Of a stretch of DNA of 17,310 nucleotides, positions 7,321 through 17,310 are shown piece after piece (position 1 is the stretch's first letter; every line of letters starts with the position of its first letter). The position numbers were made by a program, and so were the translations under genes. The notes beneath the pieces are model-generated. The model worked only from the letters and a program-made list of their open reading frames with translations. It was not told the DNA's origin and did no database searches. The stretch is from a virus (taxonomy: Duplodnaviria > Heunggongvirae > Uroviricota > Caudoviricetes): IMG/VR virus record IMGVR_UViG_2563366958_000013. The stretch is one strand, 5' to 3'.

Positions 7321-8064
7321 ATGACACAGACAGAATCAGCGATTCTGGCGCACGCCCGGCGATGTGCGCCAGCGGAGTCGTGCGGCTTCGTGGTAAGCAC
7401 GCCGGAGGGGGAAAGATATTTCCCCTGCGTGAATATCTCCGGTGAGCCGGAGGCGTATTTCCGTATGTCGCCGGAAGACTGGCTGCAGGCAGAAATGCAG
7501 GGTGAGATTGTGGCGCTGGTCCACAGCCACCCCGGTGGCCTGCCCTGGCTGAGTGAGGCCGACCGGCGGCTGCAGGTGCAGAGTGATTTGCCGTGGTGGC
7601 TGGTCTGCCGGGGGACGATTCATAAGTTCCGCTGTGTGCCGCATCTCACCGGGCGGCGCTTTGAGCACGGTGTGACGGACTGTTACACACTGTTCCGGGA
7701 TGCTTATCATCTGGCGGGGATTGAGATGCCGGACTTTCATCGTGAGGATGACTGGTGGCGTAACGGCCAGAATCTCTATCTGGATAATCTGGAGGCGACG
7801 GGGCTGTATCAGGTGCCGTTGTCAGCGGCACAGCCGGGCGATGTGCTGCTGTGCTGTTTTGGTTCATCGGTGCCGAATCACGCCGCAATTTACTGCGGCG
7901 ACGGCGAGCTGCTGCACCATATTCCTGAACAACTGAGCAAACGAGAGAGGTACACCGACAAATGGCAGCGACGCACACACTCCCTCTGGCGTCACCGGGC
8001 ATGGCGCGCATCTGCCTTTACGGGGATTTACAACGATTTGGTCGCCGCATCGACCTTCGTGTGA
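7321..8064 (+). CDS. K: tail tip assembly protein K (JAB/MPN-like plus NlpC/P60-like domains)
   Basis: 247-aa product MTQTESAILAHARRCAPAESCGFVV...HSHPGG...VTDCYTLFRDAYH... matches lambda gpK. The HSHPGG (JAMM-like) and DCYTLF (NlpC/P60 Cys) motifs are visible in the sequence. Confidence 0.88.
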   Translation: MTQTESAILAHARRCAPAESCGFVVSTPEGERYFPCVNISGEPEAYFRMSPEDWLQAEMQGEIVALVHSHPGGLPWLSEADRRLQVQSDLPWWLVCRGTIHKFRCVPHLTGRRFEHGVTDCYTLFRDAYHLAGIEMPDFHREDDWWRNGQNLYLDNLEATGLYQVPLSAAQPGDVLLCCFGSSVPNHAAIYCGDGELLHHIPEQLSKRERYTDKWQRRTHSLWRHRAWRASAFTGIYNDLVAASTFV

Positions 8065-8633
8065 AAACGGGGGCTGAAGCCATCCGGGCACTGGCCACAC
8101 AGCTCCCGGCGTTTCGTCAGAAACTGAGCGACGGCTGGTATCAGGTACGGATTGCCGGGCGGGACGTCAGCACGTCCGGGTTAACGGCGCAGTTACATGA
8201 GACTCTGCCTGATGGCGCTGTGATTCATATTGTTCCCAGAGTCGCCGGGGCCAAGTCAGGTGGCGTATTCCAGATTGTCCTGGGGGCTGCCGCCATTGCC
8301 GGATCATTCTTTACCGCCGGAGCCACCCTTGCAGCATGGGGGGCAGCCATTGGGGCCGGTGGTATGACCGGCATCCTGTTTTCTCTCGGTGCCAGTATGG
8401 TGCTCGGTGGTGTGGCGCAGATGCTGGCACCGAAAGCCAGAACTCCCCGTACACAGACAACGGATAACGGTAAGCAGAACACCTATTTCTCCTCACTGGA
8501 TAACATGGTTGCCCAGGGCAATGTTCTGCCTGTTCTGTACGGGGAAATGCGCGTGGGGTCACGCGTGGTTTCTCAGGAGATCAGCACGGCAGACGAAGGG
8601 GACGGTGGTCAGGTTGTGGTGATTGGTCGCTGA
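7962..8633 (+). CDS. I: tail tip assembly protein I
   Basis: 223-aa product MAATHTLPLASPGMARICLYGDLQRFGRRIDLRVKTGAEAIRALATQLPAFRQKL... matches lambda gpI; starts 103 nt inside the 3' end of K in another frame, RBS GAGAGAGG (7943-7950). Confidence 0.88.
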   Translation: MAATHTLPLASPGMARICLYGDLQRFGRRIDLRVKTGAEAIRALATQLPAFRQKLSDGWYQVRIAGRDVSTSGLTAQLHETLPDGAVIHIVPRVAGAKSGGVFQIVLGAAAIAGSFFTAGATLAAWGAAIGAGGMTGILFSLGASMVLGGVAQMLAPKARTPRTQTTDNGKQNTYFSSLDNMVAQGNVLPVLYGEMRVGSRVVSQEISTADEGDGGQVVVIGR

Positions 8634-8651
8634 TGCAAAATGTTTTATGTG

Positions 8652-8672
8652 AAACCGCCTGCGGGCGGTTTT
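8652..8672 (+). other. perfect GC-rich hairpin in the I-J intergenic spacer (possible weak terminator or RNA-processing/stability element)
   Basis: aaaccgcc (8652-8659) / loop tgcg / ggcggttt (8664-8671) form a perfect 8-bp stem, followed by T then GTCATTTAT; lies 20 nt after the I stop and 22 nt before the J ATG. Confidence 0.35.
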
Positions 8673-8693
8673 GTCATTTATGGAGCGTGAGGA

Positions 8694-11600
8694 ATGGGTA
8701 AAGGAAGCAGTAAGGGGCATACCCCGCGCGAAGCGAAGGACAACCTGAAGTCCACGCAGTTGCTGAGTGTGATCGATGCCATCAGCGAAGGGCCGGTTGA
8801 AGGTCCGGTGGATGGATTAAAAAGCGTGCTGCTGAACAGTACGCCGGTGCTGGACACTGAGGGGAATACCAACATCTCCGGTGTCACGGTGGTGTTCCGT
8901 GCCGGTGAGCAGGAGCAGACACCGCCGGAGGGGTTTGAATCCTCCGGCTCCGAGACGGTGCTGGGTACGGAAGTGAAATATGACACGCCGATCACCCGCA
9001 CCATTACGTCTGCAAACATCGACCGTCTGCGCTTTACCTTCGGTGTACAGGCACTGGTGGAAACCACCTCAAAGGGTGACAGGAATCCGTCGGAAGTCCG
9101 TCTGCTGGTTCAGATACAACGTAACGGTGGCTGGGTGACGGAAAAAGACATCACCATTAAGGGCAAAACCACCTCGCAGTATCTGGCCTCGGTGGTGGTG
9201 GGTAACCTGCCGCCGCGCCCGTTTAATATCCGGATGCGCAGGATGACGCCGGACAGCACCACAGACCAGCTGCAGAACAAAACGCTCTGGTCGTCATACA
9301 CCGAAATCATCGATGTGAAACAGTGCTACCCGAACACGGCACTGGTCGGCGTGCAGGTGGACTCGGAGCAGTTCGGCAGCCAGCAGGTGAGCCGTAATTA
9401 TCATCTTCGCGGGCGCATTCTGCAGGTGCCGTCGAACTATAACCCGCAGACGCGGCAATACAGCGGTATCTGGGACGGAACGTTTAAGCCGGCATACAGC
9501 AACAACCCGGCCTGGTGTCTGTGGGATATGCTGACCCACCCGCGCTACGGCATGGGGAAACGTCTTGGTGCGGCGGATGTGGATAAATGGGCGCTGTATG
9601 TCATCGGCCAGTACTGCGACCAGTCAGTGCCGGACGGTTTTGGCGGCACGGAGCCGCGCATCACCTGTAATGCCTGGCTGACCACGCAGCGTAAGGCGTG
9701 GGATGTGCTCAGTGATTTCTGCTCGGCGATGCGCTGTATGCCGGTATGGAACGGGCAGACGCTGACGTTCGTGCAGGACCGACCATCAGATAAGGTGTGG
9801 ACCTATAACCGCAGTAATGTGGTGATGCCGGATGATGGCGCGCCGTTCCGCTACAGCTTCAGCGCCCTGAAGGACCGCCATAATGCCGTTGAGGTGAACT
9901 GGATTGACCCGAACAACGGCTGGGAGACGGCGACAGAGCTTGTTGAAGATACGCAGGCCATTGTCCGTTACGGTCGTAATGTCACGAAGATGGATGCCTT
10001 TGGCTGTACCAGCCGGGGGCAGGCACACCGCGCCGGGCTGTGGCTGATTAAAACTGAACTGCTGGAGACGCAGACCGTGGATTTCAGCGTGGGTGCTGAA
10101 GGGCTTCGCCATGTACCGGGCGATGTCATTGAAATCTGCGATGATGACTATGCCGGTATCAGCACCGGTGGTCGCGTGCTGGCGGTGAACAGCCAGACCC
10201 GGACGCTGACGCTCGACCGTGAAATCACGCTGCCATCCTCCGGTACCACGCTGATAAGCCTGGTTGACGGAAGTGGCAATCCGGTCAGCGTGGAGGTTCA
10301 GTCCGTCACCGACGGACTTAAGGTGAAAGTGAACCGGGTTCCTGACGGCGTTGCAGAATACAGTGTGTGGGGGCTGAAGTTGCCGACGTTGCGTCAGCGC
10401 CTGTTCCGCTGTGTGAGTATCCGGGAGAACGATGACGGTGCGTATGCCATCACCGCCGTGCAGCATGTACCGGAAAAAGAAGCCATCGTGGATAACGGGG
10501 CGCACTTTGACGGCGACCAGAGCGGCACGGTGAATGGTGTCACGCCGCCAGCGGTGCAGCACCTGACCGCCGAAGTCACCGCAGACAGCGGGGAATATCA
10601 GGTGCTGGCGCGCTGGGACACGCCGAAGGTGGTGAAGGGCGTGAGCTTCCTGCTCCGTCTGACCGTAACAGCGGATGACGGCAGTGAGCGGCTGGTCAGC
10701 ACGGCCCGGACGGCGGAAACCACTTACCGCTTCAGGCAGCTGGCGCTGGGGCGTTACACGCTGACGGTCCGGGCGGTAAATGCCCGGGGACAGCAGGGCG
10801 ATCCGGCGTCGGTATCGTTCCGGATTGCCGCACCGGCAGCACCGTCGAGGATTGAGCTGACGCCGGGCTATTTTCAGATAACCGCCACGCCGCATCTTGC
10901 CGTTTATGACCCGACGGTACAGTTTGAGTTCTGGTTCTCGGAAAAGCGGATTACCGATATCAGGCAGGTTGAAACCACAGCCCGCTATCTTGGTACGGCG
11001 CTGTACTGGATAGCCGCCAGTATCAATATCAAACCGGGCCATGATTATTACTTTTATATCCGCAGTGTGAACACCGTTGGCAAATCGGCATTCGTGGAGG
11101 CTGTCGGTCAGGCGAGCGATGATGCGGAAGGTTACCTGGATTTTTTCAAAGGCCAGATAACCGAATCCCATCTCGGCAAGGAGCTGCTGGAAAAAGTCGA
11201 GCTGACGGAGGATAACGCCAGCAGACTGGAGGAGTTTTCGAAAGAGTGGCAGGACGCTAACGATAAGTGGAATGCCATGTGGGGCGTCAAAATTGAGCAG
11301 ACCAAAGACGGCAAACATTATGTCGCGGGTATTGGCCTCAGCATGGAGGACACGGAAGAAGGCAAGCTGAGCCAGTTTCTGGTTGCCGCTAACCGTATCG
11401 CGTTTATTGACCCGGCAAACGGGAATGAAACGCCGATGTTTGTGGCGCAGGGCAATCAGATATTTATGAACGACGTGTTCCTGAAGCGCCTGACGGCCCC
11501 GACCATTACCAGTGGTGGAAATCCACCGGCATTTTCCCTGACATCAGACGGAAAGCTGACCGCTAAAAATGCGGATATCAGTGGCAGAGTGAATGCGAAC

Positions 11601-12107
11601 GCCGGGACGCTCAACAATGTCACGGTAAATGAAAACTGTACGATTAAGGGCATGCTGGAGGCGACTCAGGTCAGAGGTGACTTCGTTAAAGCTGTATCCA
11701 AATCATTCCCGAAACAGGCTGGTACGTGGGGTAACACGGAAACACCAAACGGGACGGTTACAGTCACCATCAGCGATGATCATAACTTTGACCGTCAAAT
11801 CATTATTCCGCCCATTATCTTTAACGGAATAGCGTATAGCGATCCGGGAAGTGGTAATAACCCGGGAGGTACAAGATACACGGGTTATGGTTTTGAAGTT
11901 CGCAAAAACGGTGTATTAATCGCATCCAGAGAAACTAAAGGGGCCATTCCCGGTAGCTACAGTGCGGTTATTGATATGCCGAGTGGCAGGGGAAGCGTCA
12001 CTCTGGAGTTTAAGGTTTTCCATAAAGGCAATCAGTGGGCAGGTAATATCACCGACTGTACGGTGATTGTGACCAAAAAAGCCGCTTCCGGCATCAGTAT
12101 TCGTTGA
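8694..12107 (+). CDS. J: tail tip attachment / central tail fiber (host specificity) protein J
   Basis: 1137-aa product; the first ~1000 residues ([34 protein letters not shown]...) closely match lambda gpJ as I recall it; the last ~130 residues look divergent. RBS GAGGAA upstream. Confidence 0.92.
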
Positions 12108-12128
12108 AATTGTTATAACCCATATAAG

Positions 12129-12152
12129 GGCACCAGAAATGGTGCCTTTTTT
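12129..12152 (+). terminator. rho-independent terminator downstream of J
   Basis: GGCACC (12129-12134) / loop agaaat / GGTGCC (12141-12146) followed by TTTTTT (12147-12152); 22 nt after the J stop. Confidence 0.6.
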
Positions 12153-12176
12153 ATTGCAGAAAAGCGAGAGGTAATT

Positions 12177-12776
12177 ATGCGTAAACTTTATGCCGCCATT
12201 TTGTCCGCAGCCATTTGTCTGGCCGTATCCGGTGCGCCTGCATGGGCATCTGAACATCAGTCCACGCTGAGCGCGGGGTATCTTCATGCCCGGACCAACG
12301 TTCCCGGCAGTGATGATCTGAACGGGATTAACGTGAAATACCGTTATGAGTTTACGGATACGCTGGGGCTGGTGACGTCATTCAGCTATGCAGGAGACAA
12401 GAATCGCCAGCTGACCCGTTACAGCGATACCAGCTGGCATGAAGATTCCGTGCGTAACCGCTGGTTCAGCGTGATGGCGGGGCCGTCTGTGCGCGTGAAT
12501 GAATGGTTCAGCGCGTATGCGATGGCGGGTATGGCTTACAGCCGTGTTTCGACTTTTTCCGGGGATTACCTTCGCGTAACTGACAACAAGGGGAAAACGC
12601 ACGATGTGCTGACCGGAAGTGATGACGGTCGCCACAGCAACACGTCTCTGGCGTGGGGGGCTGGCGTGCAGTTTAACCCGACCGAATCCGTGGCCATTGA
12701 TATTGCTTATGAAGGTTCTGGCAGTGGTGACTGGCGCACTGACGGTTTCATCGTGGGTGTCGGTTATAAATTCTGA
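12177..12776 (+). CDS. lom: outer membrane beta-barrel protein Lom (Ail/Lom/PagC/OmpX family), lysogenic-conversion moron
   Basis: 199-aa product MRKLYAAILSAAICLAVSGAPAWASEHQSTLSAGYLHARTNVPGSDDLNGINVKYRYEF...GFIVGVGYKF matches lambda Lom; signal peptide with AWA-SE cleavage context, C-terminal aromatic residue (F) typical of OMP barrels; RBS GAGAGG. Confidence 0.9.
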   Translation: MRKLYAAILSAAICLAVSGAPAWASEHQSTLSAGYLHARTNVPGSDDLNGINVKYRYEFTDTLGLVTSFSYAGDKNRQLTRYSDTSWHEDSVRNRWFSVMAGPSVRVNEWFSAYAMAGMAYSRVSTFSGDYLRVTDNKGKTHDVLTGSDDGRHSNTSLAWGAGVQFNPTESVAIDIAYEGSGSGDWRTDGFIVGVGYKF

Positions 12777-12802
12777 TTAGCCAGGTAACACAGTGTTATG
12801 AC

Positions 12803-12830
12803 AGCCCGCCGGTTCAGGTGGGCTTTTTTG
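12803..12830 (+). terminator. rho-independent terminator downstream of lom
   Basis: AGCCCGCC (12803-12810) / loop ggttca / GGTGGGCT (12817-12824), an 8-bp stem with one G-U pair, followed by TTTTTT (12825-12830). Confidence 0.6.
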
Positions 12831-12840
12831 TGGGGGGAAT

Positions 12841-15237
12841 ATGGCAGTAAAGATTTCAGGTGTACTGAAAGACGGCACAGGAAAACCGGTACAGAACTGC
12901 TCAATCCAGCTGAAAGCAAAACGTAACAGCACCACGGTGGTAGTGAACACGCTGGCCTCAGAAAATCCGGATGAAGCCGGGCGTTACAGTATGGATGTTG
13001 AGTATGGCCAGTACAGCGTTATCCTGCTGGTTGAAGGTTTTTCGCCTTCACATGCCGGGACCATCACCGTGTATGAAGATTCTAAGCCGGGGACGCTGAA
13101 TGATTTTCTCGGTGCCATGACGGAAGATGATGTCATGCCGGAGGCATTGCGTCGTTTTGAGGAAATGGTGGAAGAAGCGGCACGCAACGCTGAAGCCGCC
13201 TCTCAGAGCGCAGCGGCGGCAAAGAAATCCGAAACTGCAGCGGCATCATCGAAGAACGCGGCGAAAACCTCAGAAACGAATGCAGCTAATAGTGCACAGG
13301 CGGCAGCGACCTCAAAGACTGCATCGGCAAACTCCGCGACAGCAGCCAAAAAATCAGAAACCAACGCGAAAAATAGCGAGACAGCCGCAAAGACGAGCGA
13401 AACCAACGCAAAGTCCAGCCAGACGGCAGCGAAAACCAGCGAAACGAATGCCAAAGCCAGTGAAACTGCGGCAAAAAACAGCCAGGTTGCAGCAGCCCAA
13501 AGCGAGAGCGCGGCAGCCGGTTCTGCGACTTCAGCAGCTGGATCAGCAACTGCTGCGGCTAACAGCCAGAAAGCTGCGAAGACGAGTGAAACTAACGCAA
13601 AGTCCAGCCAGACGGCAGCGAAGACCAGCGAAACGAATGCCAAAGCCAGCGAAACTGCGGCGAAAAACAGTCAGGATGCAGCAGCCCAAAGCGAGAGTGC
13701 TGCAGCTGGTTCTGCAAGCGCGGCGGCTGCTTCTGCCACTGCATCAGCCAACAGTCAAAAAGCAGCAAAAACCAGTGAAACCAATGCAAAGACAAGCGAG
13801 ACTGCAGCGGCGAACTCGGCGAAAGCATCGGCAGCAAGCCAGACAGCAGCTAAAGCAAGTGAAGACGCAGCCAGAGAGTATGCAAGTCAGGCAGCAGAGC
13901 CGTATAAATATGTCTTACAGCCACTGCCTGATGTGTGGATACCGTTTAACGATTCACTGGATATGATTACGGGCTTTTCGCCGTCATATAAAAAAATTGT
14001 TATTGGTGATGATGAAATAACGATGCCTGGCGACAAGGTTGTTAAGTTTAAACGCGCATCAACTGCCACATATATCAATAAATCAGGCGTATTTAGTGTT
14101 GCTAAAATTGATGAGCCACGATTTGAAAAAGAAGGTTTATTGATTGAAGGACAGCGCACTAACTATTTTGTTAAATCCAATACTCCCGCTGAATGGACGA
14201 GTACCAGCAATATCGATAAAACTAATAATGGTGTTGATGAATTTGGTTTTTCATATGCCAAAATGCGAACAAAAGATAATATGACAGGACAATCATCTGC
14301 ACTTAGTCTGCATACATGCAGTGCATCCCGGGGGATTGATGTTTGTGGCGATAATAAGTATTGCACTGTTTCATGCAGGGTTAAAGCTCCTGATGGTCTT
14401 CGTTGTCGTTTGCGTTTTGAAAAATACGATGGGTCGGTTTATACATTTTTAGGAGATGCTTATTTAACTTTCGGAACTCTGATAATAGAAAAAACTGGCG
14501 GAGCAGCCAATAGAATAGCAGCTACTGCAACTAAAGATCCGGTTACAGGGTGGATTTTCTATGAGGCAACTATAGAAGCTGTTGAAGGTGAAACCTTAAT
14601 TGGCGCAATGATTCAGTATGCGCCGAAAAAAGGTGGTATAACTGAAGCGGGAGATTATATTTACCTTGCAACACCACAATTTGAAAACGGCGGATGTGCT
14701 TCATCTTTTGTTATTACGACAACTGCACCCGCAACCCGCTCCAGTGATATGGTGACGATCCCAACTGAAAATAATATCTATAATAGACCGCTTACGTGTC
14801 TTGTCGAGGTTAATAGAAATTGGGGCGATATTCCTCCTAATGTAGCACCGCGTATTTTTGATTTTTCTGGTGTGCCACCTATTGAGTCAATTACATACGC
14901 TTTTAACACAACTGAGAAATATTACGGTCAGCTTTATATGCAAACTTATAAAGCGTCGACAAGTACTTACGTTTCTAGTGTGTTTGCTGGTCGAGCTGAT
15001 GTTCGAAAATTCATTGGTGGTTTTAATATTTATTCTGATGGTACTAAACGAGTAGTTTCTAACGGTGAGGCTACTAAAACTATGAAAACGGAGTGGACGG
15101 GCGTAAAAACACGGACCTTTATTCGAATTGGAGGTCAAGCCACATCGGGAACTCGTCATCTATTCGGCCATTTGAGAAATCTTCGTCTCTGGCATAAAGA
15201 ATTAACTGATGCGCAAATGGGGGAGAGTATTAAATGA
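12841..15237 (+). CDS. stf: side tail fiber protein, chimeric: lambda Stf-like N-terminus, Ala/Ser/Thr-rich repeat shaft, non-lambda C-terminal domain with a LamG/ConA-like signature
   Basis: 798-aa ORF; N-terminus MAVKISGVLKDGTGKPVQNCSIQLKAKRNSTTVVVNT...SKPGTLNDFLGAMTEDDVMPEALRRFEEMVEEAARNAEAA matches lambda Stf as I recall it. The central region is tandem repeats (AAKTSETNAKSSQT...). The C-terminal ~440 aa are AT-rich DNA and end ...GHLRNLRLWHKELTDAQMGESIK, which resembles the terminal motif of Laminin_G_3/ConA-like jelly-roll domains. RBS GGGGGGA upstream. Confidence 0.8.
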   Translation: MAVKISGVLKDGTGKPVQNCSIQLKAKRNSTTVVVNTLASENPDEAGRYSMDVEYGQYSVILLVEGFSPSHAGTITVYEDSKPGTLNDFLGAMTEDDVMPEALRRFEEMVEEAARNAEAASQSAAAAKKSETAAASSKNAAKTSETNAANSAQAAATSKTASANSATAAKKSETNAKNSETAAKTSETNAKSSQTAAKTSETNAKASETAAKNSQVAAAQSESAAAGSATSAAGSATAAANSQKAAKTSETNAKSSQTAAKTSETNAKASETAAKNSQDAAAQSESAAAGSASAAAASATASANSQKAAKTSETNAKTSETAAANSAKASAASQTAAKASEDAAREYASQAAEPYKYVLQPLPDVWIPFNDSLDMITGFSPSYKKIVIGDDEITMPGDKVVKFKRASTATYINKSGVFSVAKIDEPRFEKEGLLIEGQRTNYFVKSNTPAEWTSTSNIDKTNNGVDEFGFSYAKMRTKDNMTGQSSALSLHTCSASRGIDVCGDNKYCTVSCRVKAPDGLRCRLRFEKYDGSVYTFLGDAYLTFGTLIIEKTGGAANRIAATATKDPVTGWIFYEATIEAVEGETLIGAMIQYAPKKGGITEAGDYIYLATPQFENGGCASSFVITTTAPATRSSDMVTIPTENNIYNRPLTCLVEVNRNWGDIPPNVAPRIFDFSGVPPIESITYAFNTTEKYYGQLYMQTYKASTSTYVSSVFAGRADVRKFIGGFNIYSDGTKRVVSNGEATKTMKTEWTGVKTRTFIRIGGQATSGTRHLFGHLRNLRLWHKELTDAQMGESIK
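13387..13764 (+). repeat. two tandem ~189-bp (63-codon) imperfect direct repeats inside stf, with a partial third copy starting at 13765
   Basis: Unit beginning gc(a/g)aagacgag(c/t)gaaac(c/t)aacgcaaagtccagccagacggcagcgaa at 13387 recurs at 13576 with about 90% identity; protein repeat AAKTSETNAKSSQTAAKTSETNAKASETAAKNSQ(V/D)AAAQSESAAAGSA... Shorter ~14-codon sub-repeats extend from ~13200 to ~13860. Confidence 0.8.
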
Positions 15238-15381
15238 AAGATTTAACACTCAAATTTGCAGACAGGGCCGACTTTTCGGCCTTTATGGAGAGCATTGGCT
15301 ATTATGATGACGAGTCGATGCAGGATGATATTCTTATTGACGTGATAGGTAATGTGTACAAAGAAACCGGAGAACTTACTG

Positions 15382-15390
15382 AAGATGGCG
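15382..15390. repeat. IS1 target site duplication, left copy (AAGATGGCG)
   Basis: 9 bp immediately 5' of IS1 IRL, identical to 16159-16167. Confidence 0.9.
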
Positions 15391-15445
15391 GGTGATGCTG
15401 CCAACTTACTGATTTAGTGTATGATGGTGTTTTTGAGGTGCTCCA

Positions 15446-15721
15446 GTGGCTTCTGTTTCTATCAGCTGTCCCTCCTGTTCAGCTACTGACGGGGTGGTGC
15501 GTAACGGCAAAAGCACCGCCGGACATCAGCGCTATCTCTGCTCTCACTGCCGTAAAACATGGCAACTGCAGTTCACTTACACCGCTTCTCAACCCGGTAC
15601 GCACCAGAAAATCATTGATATGGCCATGAATGGCGTTGGATGCCGGGCAACAGCCCGCATTATGGGCGTTGGCCTCAACACGATTTTACGTCACTTAAAA
15701 AACTCAGGCCGCAGTCGGTAA
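15446..15721 (+). CDS. insA: IS1 protein InsA (transposition inhibitor / N-terminal part of InsAB' transposase)
   Basis: 91-aa product [91 protein letters not shown], the IS1 InsA sequence with zinc-finger Cys motif; begins at IS1 nt 56. Confidence 0.95.
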
Positions 15722-16143
15722 CCTCGCGCATACAGCCGGGCAGTGACGTCATCGTCTGCGCGGAAATGGACGAACAGTGGGGCTATGTCGGGGCTAAATC
15801 GCGCCAGCGCTGGCTGTTTTACGCGTATGACAGGCTCCGGAAGACGGTTGTTGCGCACGTATTCGGTGAACGCACTATGGCGACGCTGGGGCGTCTTATG
15901 AGCCTGCTGTCACCCTTTGACGTGGTGATATGGATGACGGATGGCTGGCCGCTGTATGAATCCCGCCTGAAGGGAAAGCTGCACGTAATCAGCAAGCGAT
16001 ATACGCAGCGAATTGAGCGGCATAACCTGAATCTGAGGCAGCACCTGGCACGGCTGGGACGGAAGTCGCTGTCGTTCTCAAAATCGGTGGAGCTGCATGA
16101 CAAAGTCATCGGGCATTATCTGAACATAAAACACTATCAATAA
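15640..16143 (+). CDS. insB: IS1 InsB' reading frame; expressed as InsAB' transposase by -1 frameshift at the A6C motif (15697-15703)
   Basis: -1 frame ORF relative to insA, product ...[55 protein letters not shown]... matches IS1 InsB; the ORF-track start at 15640 is the frame opening, not necessarily a used start; slippery TTAAAAAACTC present. Confidence 0.9.
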
Positions 16144-16158
16144 GTTGGAGTCATTACC

Positions 16159-16167
16159 AAGATGGCG
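16159..16167. repeat. IS1 target site duplication, right copy (AAGATGGCG)
   Basis: 9 bp immediately 3' of IS1 IRR, identical to 15382-15390. Confidence 0.9.
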
Positions 16168-16301
16168 AGCCGGTATGTGTTAAGGAGGACGGATATTTTG
16201 TAAATGTGCGCATCATTAATGATTCGCAAATATCGTCATTATTCGATGAATACGTGGTTGCTGTTGAGCATCAACTCCGTAGCTGGATGTGAGGAAGAAA
16301 A

Positions 16302-17006
16302 ATGGCTACATCGACAGTAATTCCTGATGACATCAAAACGCTAAAGGGAGATGTCAGTAAGGCAAAGGAAGATATTTCCTCAATTAACGTAAAAGTATCA
16401 ACGCTTCAGACTGATATGGACAGTGCAAAGCAGGATATCAGTACCAGATACACAAAAACAGAAGTGGATAATAAGCTGAAAAACAAAGTGGAAGTGAACG
16501 ATCTGGAAAGTGGTCGTTATGGCGGAGATTTTTACCCGCTGACTGGCCGTGAAGCGTTTTATTTATGGGGATTGGGCACAACTACAGCGGCGGCAAATCT
16601 TTATCTTAATCCTGACCCTGCAATTTCGTCTGTGCTGCGGTCAACATCGTCTATCCGCTATAAACATTCAGTAGAGACGATAGATTCAGAGCACGCCGAT
16701 CTCATTTTCAGGATGCGCCCTGTGTGGTACAGGTCGCAATGCGAAAATGACAGGCGTGACTGGGGATTCTATGGATTGATTGCCGAGGAAGTAGGAGAAA
16801 TTGCCCCTCAGTTTGTTCACTGGCGACCAGCCAACGAAGATGATGCACCGGAAACCATTTCCAGCAATGGCCTTGTTGCCGAAGGTGTAATGTACGAACG
16901 TCTGGTTGTTCCACTGATTCACCATATCCAGAAACTGACTGAAAGAGTTGATGAACTTGAGTCAGAATTGAAGTTGTTATCAACTTCCCAAAGCGATATC
17001 GGATAA
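16302..17006 (+). CDS. tail-fiber-like protein: N-terminal coiled-coil segment plus C-terminal intramolecular chaperone (peptidase S74-like) domain
   Basis: 234-aa ORF with RBS GAGGAAG. N-terminus has heptad-like pattern (DIKTLKGDVSKAKEDISSINVKVSTLQTDMDSAKQDIS). C-terminal half carries SSIRYKHSVETID...ADLIFRMRPVWYRSQ...DWGFYGLIAEEVGEIAPQFV, which fits the S74 chaperone consensus as I recall it (SDxRxKxNI...L.PV.Y.W...GFIAQEV.EV.PE.V). Motif-level call only. Confidence 0.5.
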   Translation: MATSTVIPDDIKTLKGDVSKAKEDISSINVKVSTLQTDMDSAKQDISTRYTKTEVDNKLKNKVEVNDLESGRYGGDFYPLTGREAFYLWGLGTTTAAANLYLNPDPAISSVLRSTSSIRYKHSVETIDSEHADLIFRMRPVWYRSQCENDRRDWGFYGLIAEEVGEIAPQFVHWRPANEDDAPETISSNGLVAEGVMYERLVVPLIHHIQKLTERVDELESELKLLSTSQSDIG

Positions 17007-17016
17007 AGGAGGAGTA

Positions 17017-17310
17017 ATGGATATAACACCTTTTCTTCATGCGCTTTGTGCTGTGGCTGCGCAGGTAATGATTGGTCTTTTTGCCGGAAACTGGGTTTAC
17101 GGGGCGATAGCCGGTTGTACGTTCTTCATTGCGCGTGAACACACCCAGGCAGAATATCGCTGGATTGAAATGTTCGGGCATGGCAAGTGGATTAACATGC
17201 CGTGGTGGGGCGGTTTTGATCCGCGTGTTTGGGATGTGGCAAGCCTGATAGATTTTGCTGTGCCGGTGGTGGCGTGTCTGCTGGTCTGGCTGTTGGTTAA
17301 TCGTGGGTGA
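17017..17310 (+). CDS. small hydrophobic (predicted inner-membrane) protein, unknown function
   Basis: 97-aa ORF with strong RBS AAGGAGG 8 nt upstream; two long hydrophobic stretches (FLHALCAVAAQVMIGLFAGNWVYGAIAGCTFFIA and LIDFAVPVVACLLVWLLV) with a Trp-rich loop; stop TGA is the last codon of the window. Confidence 0.5.
   Translation: MDITPFLHALCAVAAQVMIGLFAGNWVYGAIAGCTFFIAREHTQAEYRWIEMFGHGKWINMPWWGGFDPRVWDVASLIDFAVPVVACLLVWLLVNRG

Follow-up and report, generated by a model that had tools for sequence, protein, structure and literature searches.

In phage lambda, the gene lom lies between J and stf (orf-401). The DNA analysed here is a 17.3 kb stretch (hereafter the window) from the tail region of a lambda-like E. 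coli prophage, and it carries J, lom and stf, all on the + strand, with the same position, gene order and protein family as in lambda. The locus is already known as the textbook lom of lambda-like prophages, and the present work is a refinement of it and not a discovery. The lambda lom-stf junction, including the terminator downstream of lom (T2), is 98% identical to that of the window, and the C-terminal 30 aa of the two Lom proteins are identical. A hairpin and a T-run stand ∼22 nt before the lom ATG of lambda, as they do in the window. However, lambda Lom (206 aa) is only 46% identical to the window Lom (199 aa), and the lambda hairpin upstream of lom has another sequence and is weaker than that of the window (T1). 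Divergence from lambda extends as one block from ∼11650, in the receptor-binding end of J, to ∼12700, at lom codon ∼175, which indicates that allelic exchange ignores the gene borders of lom. When the J end and lom of lambda were used as a megablast query, every full match was lambda or a near-identical relative.

Phages 434 and Ayreon and prophage Perceval (OL657226, MF807953 and OV696612) share 96–97% DNA identity with the window over the J end, lom and the start of stf. They belong to the same allele class and differ from the window in nothing of substance. The short-tailed Stx phages of the Phi24B/933W type have a Lom homologue that is ∼41% identical and lies in another genomic context. 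The authors of work on these phages saw no Rho-independent terminator around the gene and reported that its expression is uncoupled from the phage cycle. The small RNA 24B_1 of Phi24B was considered and set aside as not applicable to the lom context of the window. A third Lom class was observed in viral contigs (L128–L163). Its members have 207 aa, are ∼60% identical to lambda Lom and adjoin J, with a T1 variant of their own and the same T2.

The Juhala/Hendrix morons (e.g. HK97 gene 15) are another point of comparison. Like lom, they are DNA added between two genes that adjoin each other in close relatives, with their own terminator and a product at the cell envelope. By the definition quoted in PMC3594210 they also have their own promoter and a deviant GC content, whereas neither was found for the window lom. 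We favour the reading, at a probability of roughly 0.6, that lom is a promoterless passenger of the late operon, which would be read through with the help of Q in lytic growth and silenced by T1 and T2 in the lysogen.

J (8694–12107, + strand) encodes the tip attachment or central tail fibre protein of 1137 aa. Its Pfam gpJ domains all score above cut-off, and it matches the solved lambda J with an E-value of 0. Its receptor-binding end, which is variable, takes up the last ∼150 codons (from ∼11650). lom (12177–12776, + strand) encodes a 199-aa precursor of an Ail/Lom outer-membrane beta-barrel, as assigned by matches to Pfam PF06316, PHROG 108 and PDB. It is preceded by a 21-nt leader (12156–12176, + strand), in which the Shine-Dalgarno sequence GAGAGG was read at 12166–12171, 5 nt before the ATG. 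The arrangement of hairpin, T-run, ∼21 nt and ATG is common to all three Lom classes. stf (12841–15237, + strand) encodes the side tail fibre of 798 aa, with Pfam phage_tail_N over residues 1–131 and a match to the tail fibre N-terminus of PDB 9e7m.

Several features were observed elsewhere in the window. An antisense ORF of 510 aa inside J (9786–11318, − strand) overlaps the stretch of J with a GC content of 0.61–0.67 (∼10500–11000) and is probably not a gene. In distal stf (13900–14500), the GC content falls to 0.36–0.39, which suggests that the fibre tip was acquired recently. A complete IS1 of 768 bp is present in the window at 15382–16167, with inverted repeats at 15391-13 and 16136-58, the InsA and InsB ORFs and a target duplication of 9 bp, AAGATGGCG. 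It splits a small ORF, whose start at 15234 overlaps the stf stop and whose end would be at 16292. In phage Tritos, the counterpart of the broken ORF is the 282-nt gene that follows stf, and the prophage may lack a working side-fibre accessory function.

Two intrinsic terminators around lom

The initial annotation placed one terminator after J (12129–12152) and another after lom (12803–12830). Both were confirmed at these coordinates by folding and by a strict scan. T1 (12126–12155, + strand) has its stem at 12126–12149 and its T-run at 12147–12152, followed by ATT; folding, scans and covariation all point to it. The core of the stem (12129–12146) is a perfect 7-bp Watson-Crick helix, GGCACC(A)/(T)GGTGCC, closed by a GAAA loop. 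The energy of T1 is −13.7 to −15.6 kcal/mol, with z about −4.3 against shuffles. T2 (12803–12829, + strand) has its stem at 12803–12824, a 6-nt loop and a T-run at 12824–12829. Its energy is −15.8 to −16.3 kcal/mol, with z −3.3 to −4.0, and the ribosome-binding site of stf follows directly 3′ of it. T1 lies in the spacer between J and lom, T2 in that between lom and stf, and both are on the coding strand. With a G+C-rich hairpin and a T-run 3′ of a stop codon, both are real intrinsic (Rho-independent) terminators, and both are already annotated in the GenBank records of phages 434 and Ayreon.

A lax consensus scan of 8000–17310 found terminator-like sites in no excess (8 found vs 9.6 expected), and T1 and T2 were ranks 1 and 2 among them. 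In the strict scan, a site needed 7 or more pairs, 5 or more G-C pairs, no more than 1 G·U pair and a T at 5 or more of 7 positions. On both strands of the whole window it returned T1 and T2 as the sole sites, compared with 0.07 per strand in dinucleotide shuffles. An Rfam search gave chance-level eukaryotic matches only.

Conservation of T1 was analysed in 80 viral contigs with a 97–100% identical Lom, which yielded 16 variants of the J-lom spacer. Across relatives, the stem alternates between GGCACC/GGTGCC, GGCGTC/GACGCC and GGCGCC/GGCGCC. Three pairs are altered on both sides (10 cells), by swaps of A-U to G-C and of C-G to U-A, and the covariation score of this compensatory change was reached by 0 of 500 shuffles. 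The uninterrupted T-run right after the T1 stem is invariant in all 17 of 17 spacer variants. At the site of T1, lambda and the third Lom class have unrelated hairpins. T2 is nearly invariant among relatives and shows only one-sided changes from G-C to G·U. Terminator sites t′J1–4 were reportedly mapped beyond J in the lambda late operon in 1983, and a literature search for 1983 work on late-operon terminators in this region found none.

The hairpins could also be read as mainly stabilisers or processing sites of mRNA 3′ ends, which would set the ratios of the J, lom and stf messages and would not insulate lom in the lysogen. Such a role fits hairpins that stand inside an operon in need of read-through, that keep their structure by compensatory change and that adjoin the ribosome-binding site of the next gene, at T1 as well as at T2. 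The invariant T-run, however, is a mark of termination. The two roles are not exclusive, and we consider it quite improbable that stabilisation or processing is the main one.

Between the lom stop and T2 lies a perfect 6-1-6 palindrome, TAACAC-A-GTGTTA (12786–12798). It is invariant in every lom-T2-stf spacer variant examined, including that of lambda. An RNA hairpin would need a longer loop, so the palindrome may be a protein-binding site. It was also retained in two loci with differing downstream sequence.

lom as a present/absent unit

J is directly followed by stf in two Escherichia genomes (L101 and L092) and in 7 phage records that represent 5 phages (Tritos, ev207, HannyBb, PhiR11_1 and PhiR63_1). 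In the 7 phage records, this lom-less junction is contiguous and in one piece. The lom-less spacer reads, in order, J stop, TTATAACCC, T1 hairpin, TTTTTTATT, TGTGGAGTGA and ATG of stf, from which it follows that the indel consists of the leader, lom and T2. Alignment of the spacers with the lom-less J-stf spacer delimits a unit of 673 nt (12156–12828, + strand) that contains the leader with its Shine-Dalgarno sequence, lom and T2. The junction is ambiguous by ∼2 nt, both borders ending in TT.

T2 is inside the unit and is missing from the lom-less junctions. The T1 hairpin, on the other hand, also precedes stf in L101, L092 and Tritos, and E. ruysiae is among the close relatives without lom that keep T1 before stf. 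Because lom-less relatives carry T1 directly before stf, T1 belongs to J. Judged from these spacers, it is a standing feature of the J end and not a part of the lom unit. The initial annotation had described lom as a self-contained unit between two terminators. The discrete insertion with clean borders and its own T2 agrees with that description, whereas the upstream terminator has to be assigned to J.

Both junctions of the unit lie in T-runs, with ∼2 nt of microhomology. Records that bear lom number about 190, against the 7 without it, and among 5426 complete E. coli genomes, 4709 (about 87%) carry the lom cassette, with a median of two copies. The junctions and these numbers would fit an ancestral lom at this site, the lom-less phages having arisen by deletion between the T-runs and T1 and T2 being mostly deletion end-points. 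We regard this history as plausible, at somewhat less than even odds. However, the present data do not tell a loss from a gain. A deletion would also leave the expression of the locus unchanged, and it is compatible with lom as a promoterless passenger.

Insertion sequences were observed at several related loci. In two E. coli chromosomes, L084 (4560–5748) and L111, an insertion of ∼1.2 kb splits lom between codons ∼141 and ∼138 and encodes a DDE_Tnp_1/DUF772 transposase (IS5-like). The split lom is reminiscent of lomR in the Rac prophage of K-12. In viral contig L007, the J-lom spacer is preceded by an ORF whose end is a transposase-like sequence and not J, and T1 and lom are kept; as far as this ORF tells, an IS has replaced or truncated J.

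When genome contigs were scanned for the Stf N-terminus, mostly lambda DNA in unrelated assemblies was returned, plus two lom-less Escherichia loci. About 20 assemblies (Leeuwenhoekiella, Pseudomonas, Oceanobacillus, Kitasatospora, Bradyrhizobium and others) have low-coverage contigs (L086–L099, L103–L105, L107–L109, L113, L115, L116 and L118), some of them ∼48.5 kb long and identical to lambda in this region. These contigs in unrelated genomes are laboratory contamination of public assemblies.

Promoter search and transcription in lysogens

Only 21 nt separate the T1 T-run from the lom ATG. On this spacing, there is no room for a −35/−10 promoter in the lom leader. The initial annotation had proposed promoter prediction in the 3′ end of J as a check, and two scans of 11700–12176 gave nothing above background there. 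A consensus scan of the + strand over 8000–15397, restricted to the sigma-70 consensus, found no promoter-like site. In a crude weight-matrix −35/−10 scan of 11700–12176, the best score was equalled at ∼25 places per strand of the window. Across J alleles, no promoter candidate had a conserved position except for codons of an I/V-D-M motif. A recurring −35-like TTGA(T/C)A ∼210 nt upstream was rejected, as it represents the codons of this conserved motif and has poor −10 partners. A promoter belonging to the lom unit is thus not detectable by scans that cover the sigma-70 consensus and are blind to activator-dependent or alternative-sigma promoters. Among the top four + strand matches of the weight-matrix scan was TTGAGT-16-TATCCT at 12998–13025, inside stf.

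Base composition was compared as well. The GC content is 0.550 in lom, 0.544 in the window, 0.563 in J and 0.528 in the first 600 nt of stf. A compositional anomaly of lom was rejected on these values.

These results bear on the possibility that lom is an autonomous moron, driven by a promoter of its own, weak or conditional, that would lie in the 3′ part of J or over T1, and expressed from the repressed prophage as a lysogenic-conversion factor for adhesion and serum resistance, with a terminator on each side as insulation. Membership in the Ail/Lom family would fit this, and the present/absent polymorphism would fit moron in the sense of "more DNA". However, after T1 a promoter has no room, and before T1 none is detectable. 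A transcript that starts inside J would need to pass T1, where it would meet a terminator of −13.7 kcal/mol with U6. The window Lom allele is found behind at least three unrelated types of J C-terminus, so a promoter internal to J could not travel with lom. The GC content of lom, which is not deviant (0.55 vs 0.544), also speaks against an autonomous moron.

For transcription in lysogens, the prophage Perceval of E. coli LF82 served as a proxy. Only 1 base differs between Perceval and the window in the 477 nt upstream of lom, the J-lom spacer is 100% identical, and Lom is identical at 196 of 199 residues (98%). The LF82 RNA-seq data (PMC9928086, tables S1 and S4) cover five conditions in ten libraries. 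The raw reads for lom in the two replicates were 8 and 8 in DMEM at 1 h, 6 and 6 in DMEM at 6 h, 7 and 3 in LB overnight, 0 and 1 in macrophages at 1 h, and 0 and 4 in macrophages at 6 h (PMC9928086). After normalisation in LB, lom reached 10.7, with 7.13 as the median of the prophage, 35.6 as the cut-off that the authors set for morons and 78.3 for the CI repressor (PMC9928086), in a proxy data set of low LB depth (61–80 reads for CI) with strandedness and multi-mapping unchecked. lom is therefore at 1.5 times the prophage median, vs 5 times for the moron cut-off. Its read density equals that of silent J, and the seven morons called in Perceval exclude lom (PMC9928086).

By way of this near-identical proxy, the lom of the window allele looks silent in the lysogen. 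The expression from the prophage that the initial annotation had assumed is not borne out in Perceval, where lom stays at the level of a silent late gene and is not called a moron; the reports on lambda conflict. As the result that would speak against it, the initial annotation had named a lack of any transcript start upstream of lom in lysogens, with read-through from J only during lytic growth. The silence of Perceval lom comes close to this, and its silence in all five conditions, including macrophages, further weighs against an autonomous moron.

In the macrophage samples, stf and the next two genes had 93–264 reads, whereas J (38–45) and lom (0–4) were low. The rise in the stf region was seen in PERCE_22–24 of Perceval and in TRITO_19–21 of Tritos (corresponding to the window from 12841 onwards), that is, in lom-bearing and lom-less prophages alike. 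This implies a transcript that starts at or beyond the J/lom-stf junction, or an antisense one.

The literature on other phages is divided. For lambda, PhoA fusions and arrays have repeatedly led to reports of lom expression in lysogens, which implies some promoter or leak at least in lambda, and lom is linked to adhesion to buccal cells. For Phi24B, equal expression of lom in lysogens and induced cells is reported. These reports favour an autonomous moron. In contrast, one array study did not detect lambda lom in lysogens and adds that little is known about the lom promoter. Lambda lom is strongly expressed late in infection (Liu 2013, as summarised in citing papers). The lambda T1 has a 6-bp stem, −9.7 kcal/mol and U4, compared with −13.7 kcal/mol and U6 for the window T1. 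Since the lambda T1 is the weaker one, leakage through it is a possible reconciliation of lom expression in lambda with that in Perceval. Weighing the two sides, we consider it unlikely that lom is an autonomous moron.

Compared with the moron definition, the window lom is extra DNA between otherwise adjacent genes and has its own terminator, T2. It shows no promoter of its own in the sigma-70 scans, no deviant base composition and, in the proxy, no prophage transcription.

The Lom protein and its possible role

The lom product aligns over residues 1–199 of 199 with positions 1–199 of the Pfam profile PF06316 (Ail_Lom), with an E-value of 5.8e-119 and a score of 395.5 bits vs a gathering cut-off of 23. 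It also matches PHROG 108, "Lom outer membrane protein", over 1–199 of 199. The signal peptide, as read from the sequence, consists of MRK, a hydrophobic core and the cleavage motif AWA/SE (codons 12177–12248). The C-terminus is ...VGYKF, whose aromatic last residue is a barrel-assembly signal. The full-length profile match, AWA/SE and ...GYKF bear out the earlier view of lom as intact, with a signal peptide and a C-terminal Phe. Lom matches lambda Lom in PDB 9wso_C with an E-value of 2e-49, and the solved OmpX and Ail with E-values of ∼1e-18. These matches support the prediction of an eight-stranded barrel. The alignment with lambda Lom and Ail that had been proposed as a check thus gives 46% identity to the former and a match to the solved structure of the latter.

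The barrels of Ail, Rck, PagC and OmpX share a Pfam family or clan with the window Lom. Unlike them, the window Lom is phage-borne, lies in a tail operon and falls below the Rck and OmpX equivalog cut-offs. Against the NCBIfam Rck equivalog NF011777 (resistance to complement killing) it scored 118 bits, below the cut-off of 258, and against the OmpX equivalog NF006917 it scored 96.5 bits, below the cut-off of 176. A PADLOC search of lom gave no match. Because the Rck and OmpX cut-offs were missed, serum resistance and adhesion, on which the initial annotation had based a likely lysogenic-conversion role of lom, are a family association and not a result. The same scores count against an autonomous conversion factor. 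Adhesion or serum effects could possibly be a by-product of low-level Lom expression.

A different role is suggested by work on lambda. In a 2025 preprint, over-expressed lambda Lom protects against lambda-vir and not against T7, and Lom is proposed to prevent non-productive adsorption. The PDB entry 9wso combines "Outer membrane protein lom" with maltoporin (LamB, the lambda receptor), which is identical in sequence to the maltoporin of the J-LamB complex 8xcj. The combination implies that 9wso is a solved complex of Lom and receptor; a literature search for a paper describing the entry found none. Together, 9wso and the preprint point to a receptor-binding role of Lom late in infection. For the window Lom, this would be the most likely role, by extrapolation from a lambda Lom that is 46% identical.

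A coupling of Lom and J alleles would be expected if Lom served to mask the receptor that its phage uses, and the block divergent from lambda does span both. Among 169 loci, however, Lom of the window type has partners in three J clusters, three Lom classes are combined with a single J cluster, and a non-lambda Lom also follows a J end of the lambda type. A strict coupling of the Lom allele to the receptor-binding allele of J was rejected, since the classes reassort over the 169 loci. We tentatively suggest, with the odds running against it, that J-adjacent Lom proteins are in general strictly late receptor-masking proteins and not primarily lysogenic-conversion factors. The promoterless design between terminators would keep them off in the lysogen. 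At lysis they would bind the porin that the phage uses, as 9wso suggests for lambda Lom, and progeny would not adsorb to doomed cells or debris. The 434-type Lom would have another porin partner than lambda Lom, and such units would be gained or lost by illegitimate joining at terminator T-runs.

On the preferred reading of lom as a promoterless late-operon passenger, a unit of Shine-Dalgarno sequence, lom and T2 would have been gained or lost, joined exactly at the distal edge of T1. In lytic growth, RNA polymerase modified by Q would start at the late promoter and ignore T1 and T2, so that J, lom and stf would be co-transcribed. Read-through of this kind is established for the lambda late operon, and we infer it for T1 and T2 of the window, the Q gene and the late promoter lying outside. 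In every relative, stf is reached only through T1 or T2, so lytic read-through appears to be built into the design. Translation of lom would start from a strong ribosome-binding site of its own, and Lom would be exported to the outer membrane. By binding or covering a receptor at the surface of the dying cell, it would keep progeny from being wasted on that cell. In the repressed prophage, stray transcription of the tail genes would be halted at T1 and leakage at T2, and lom and stf would be essentially silent.

lom is widely cited as a textbook moron and a virulence-associated conversion gene, and an E. coli genome often has several copies of it. If the common 434-type lom indeed lacks a promoter and is silent in lysogens, copies of lom could not safely be counted as virulence determinants. 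The lytic cycle would then be the place to look for its selective value, for example as a block to re-adsorption.
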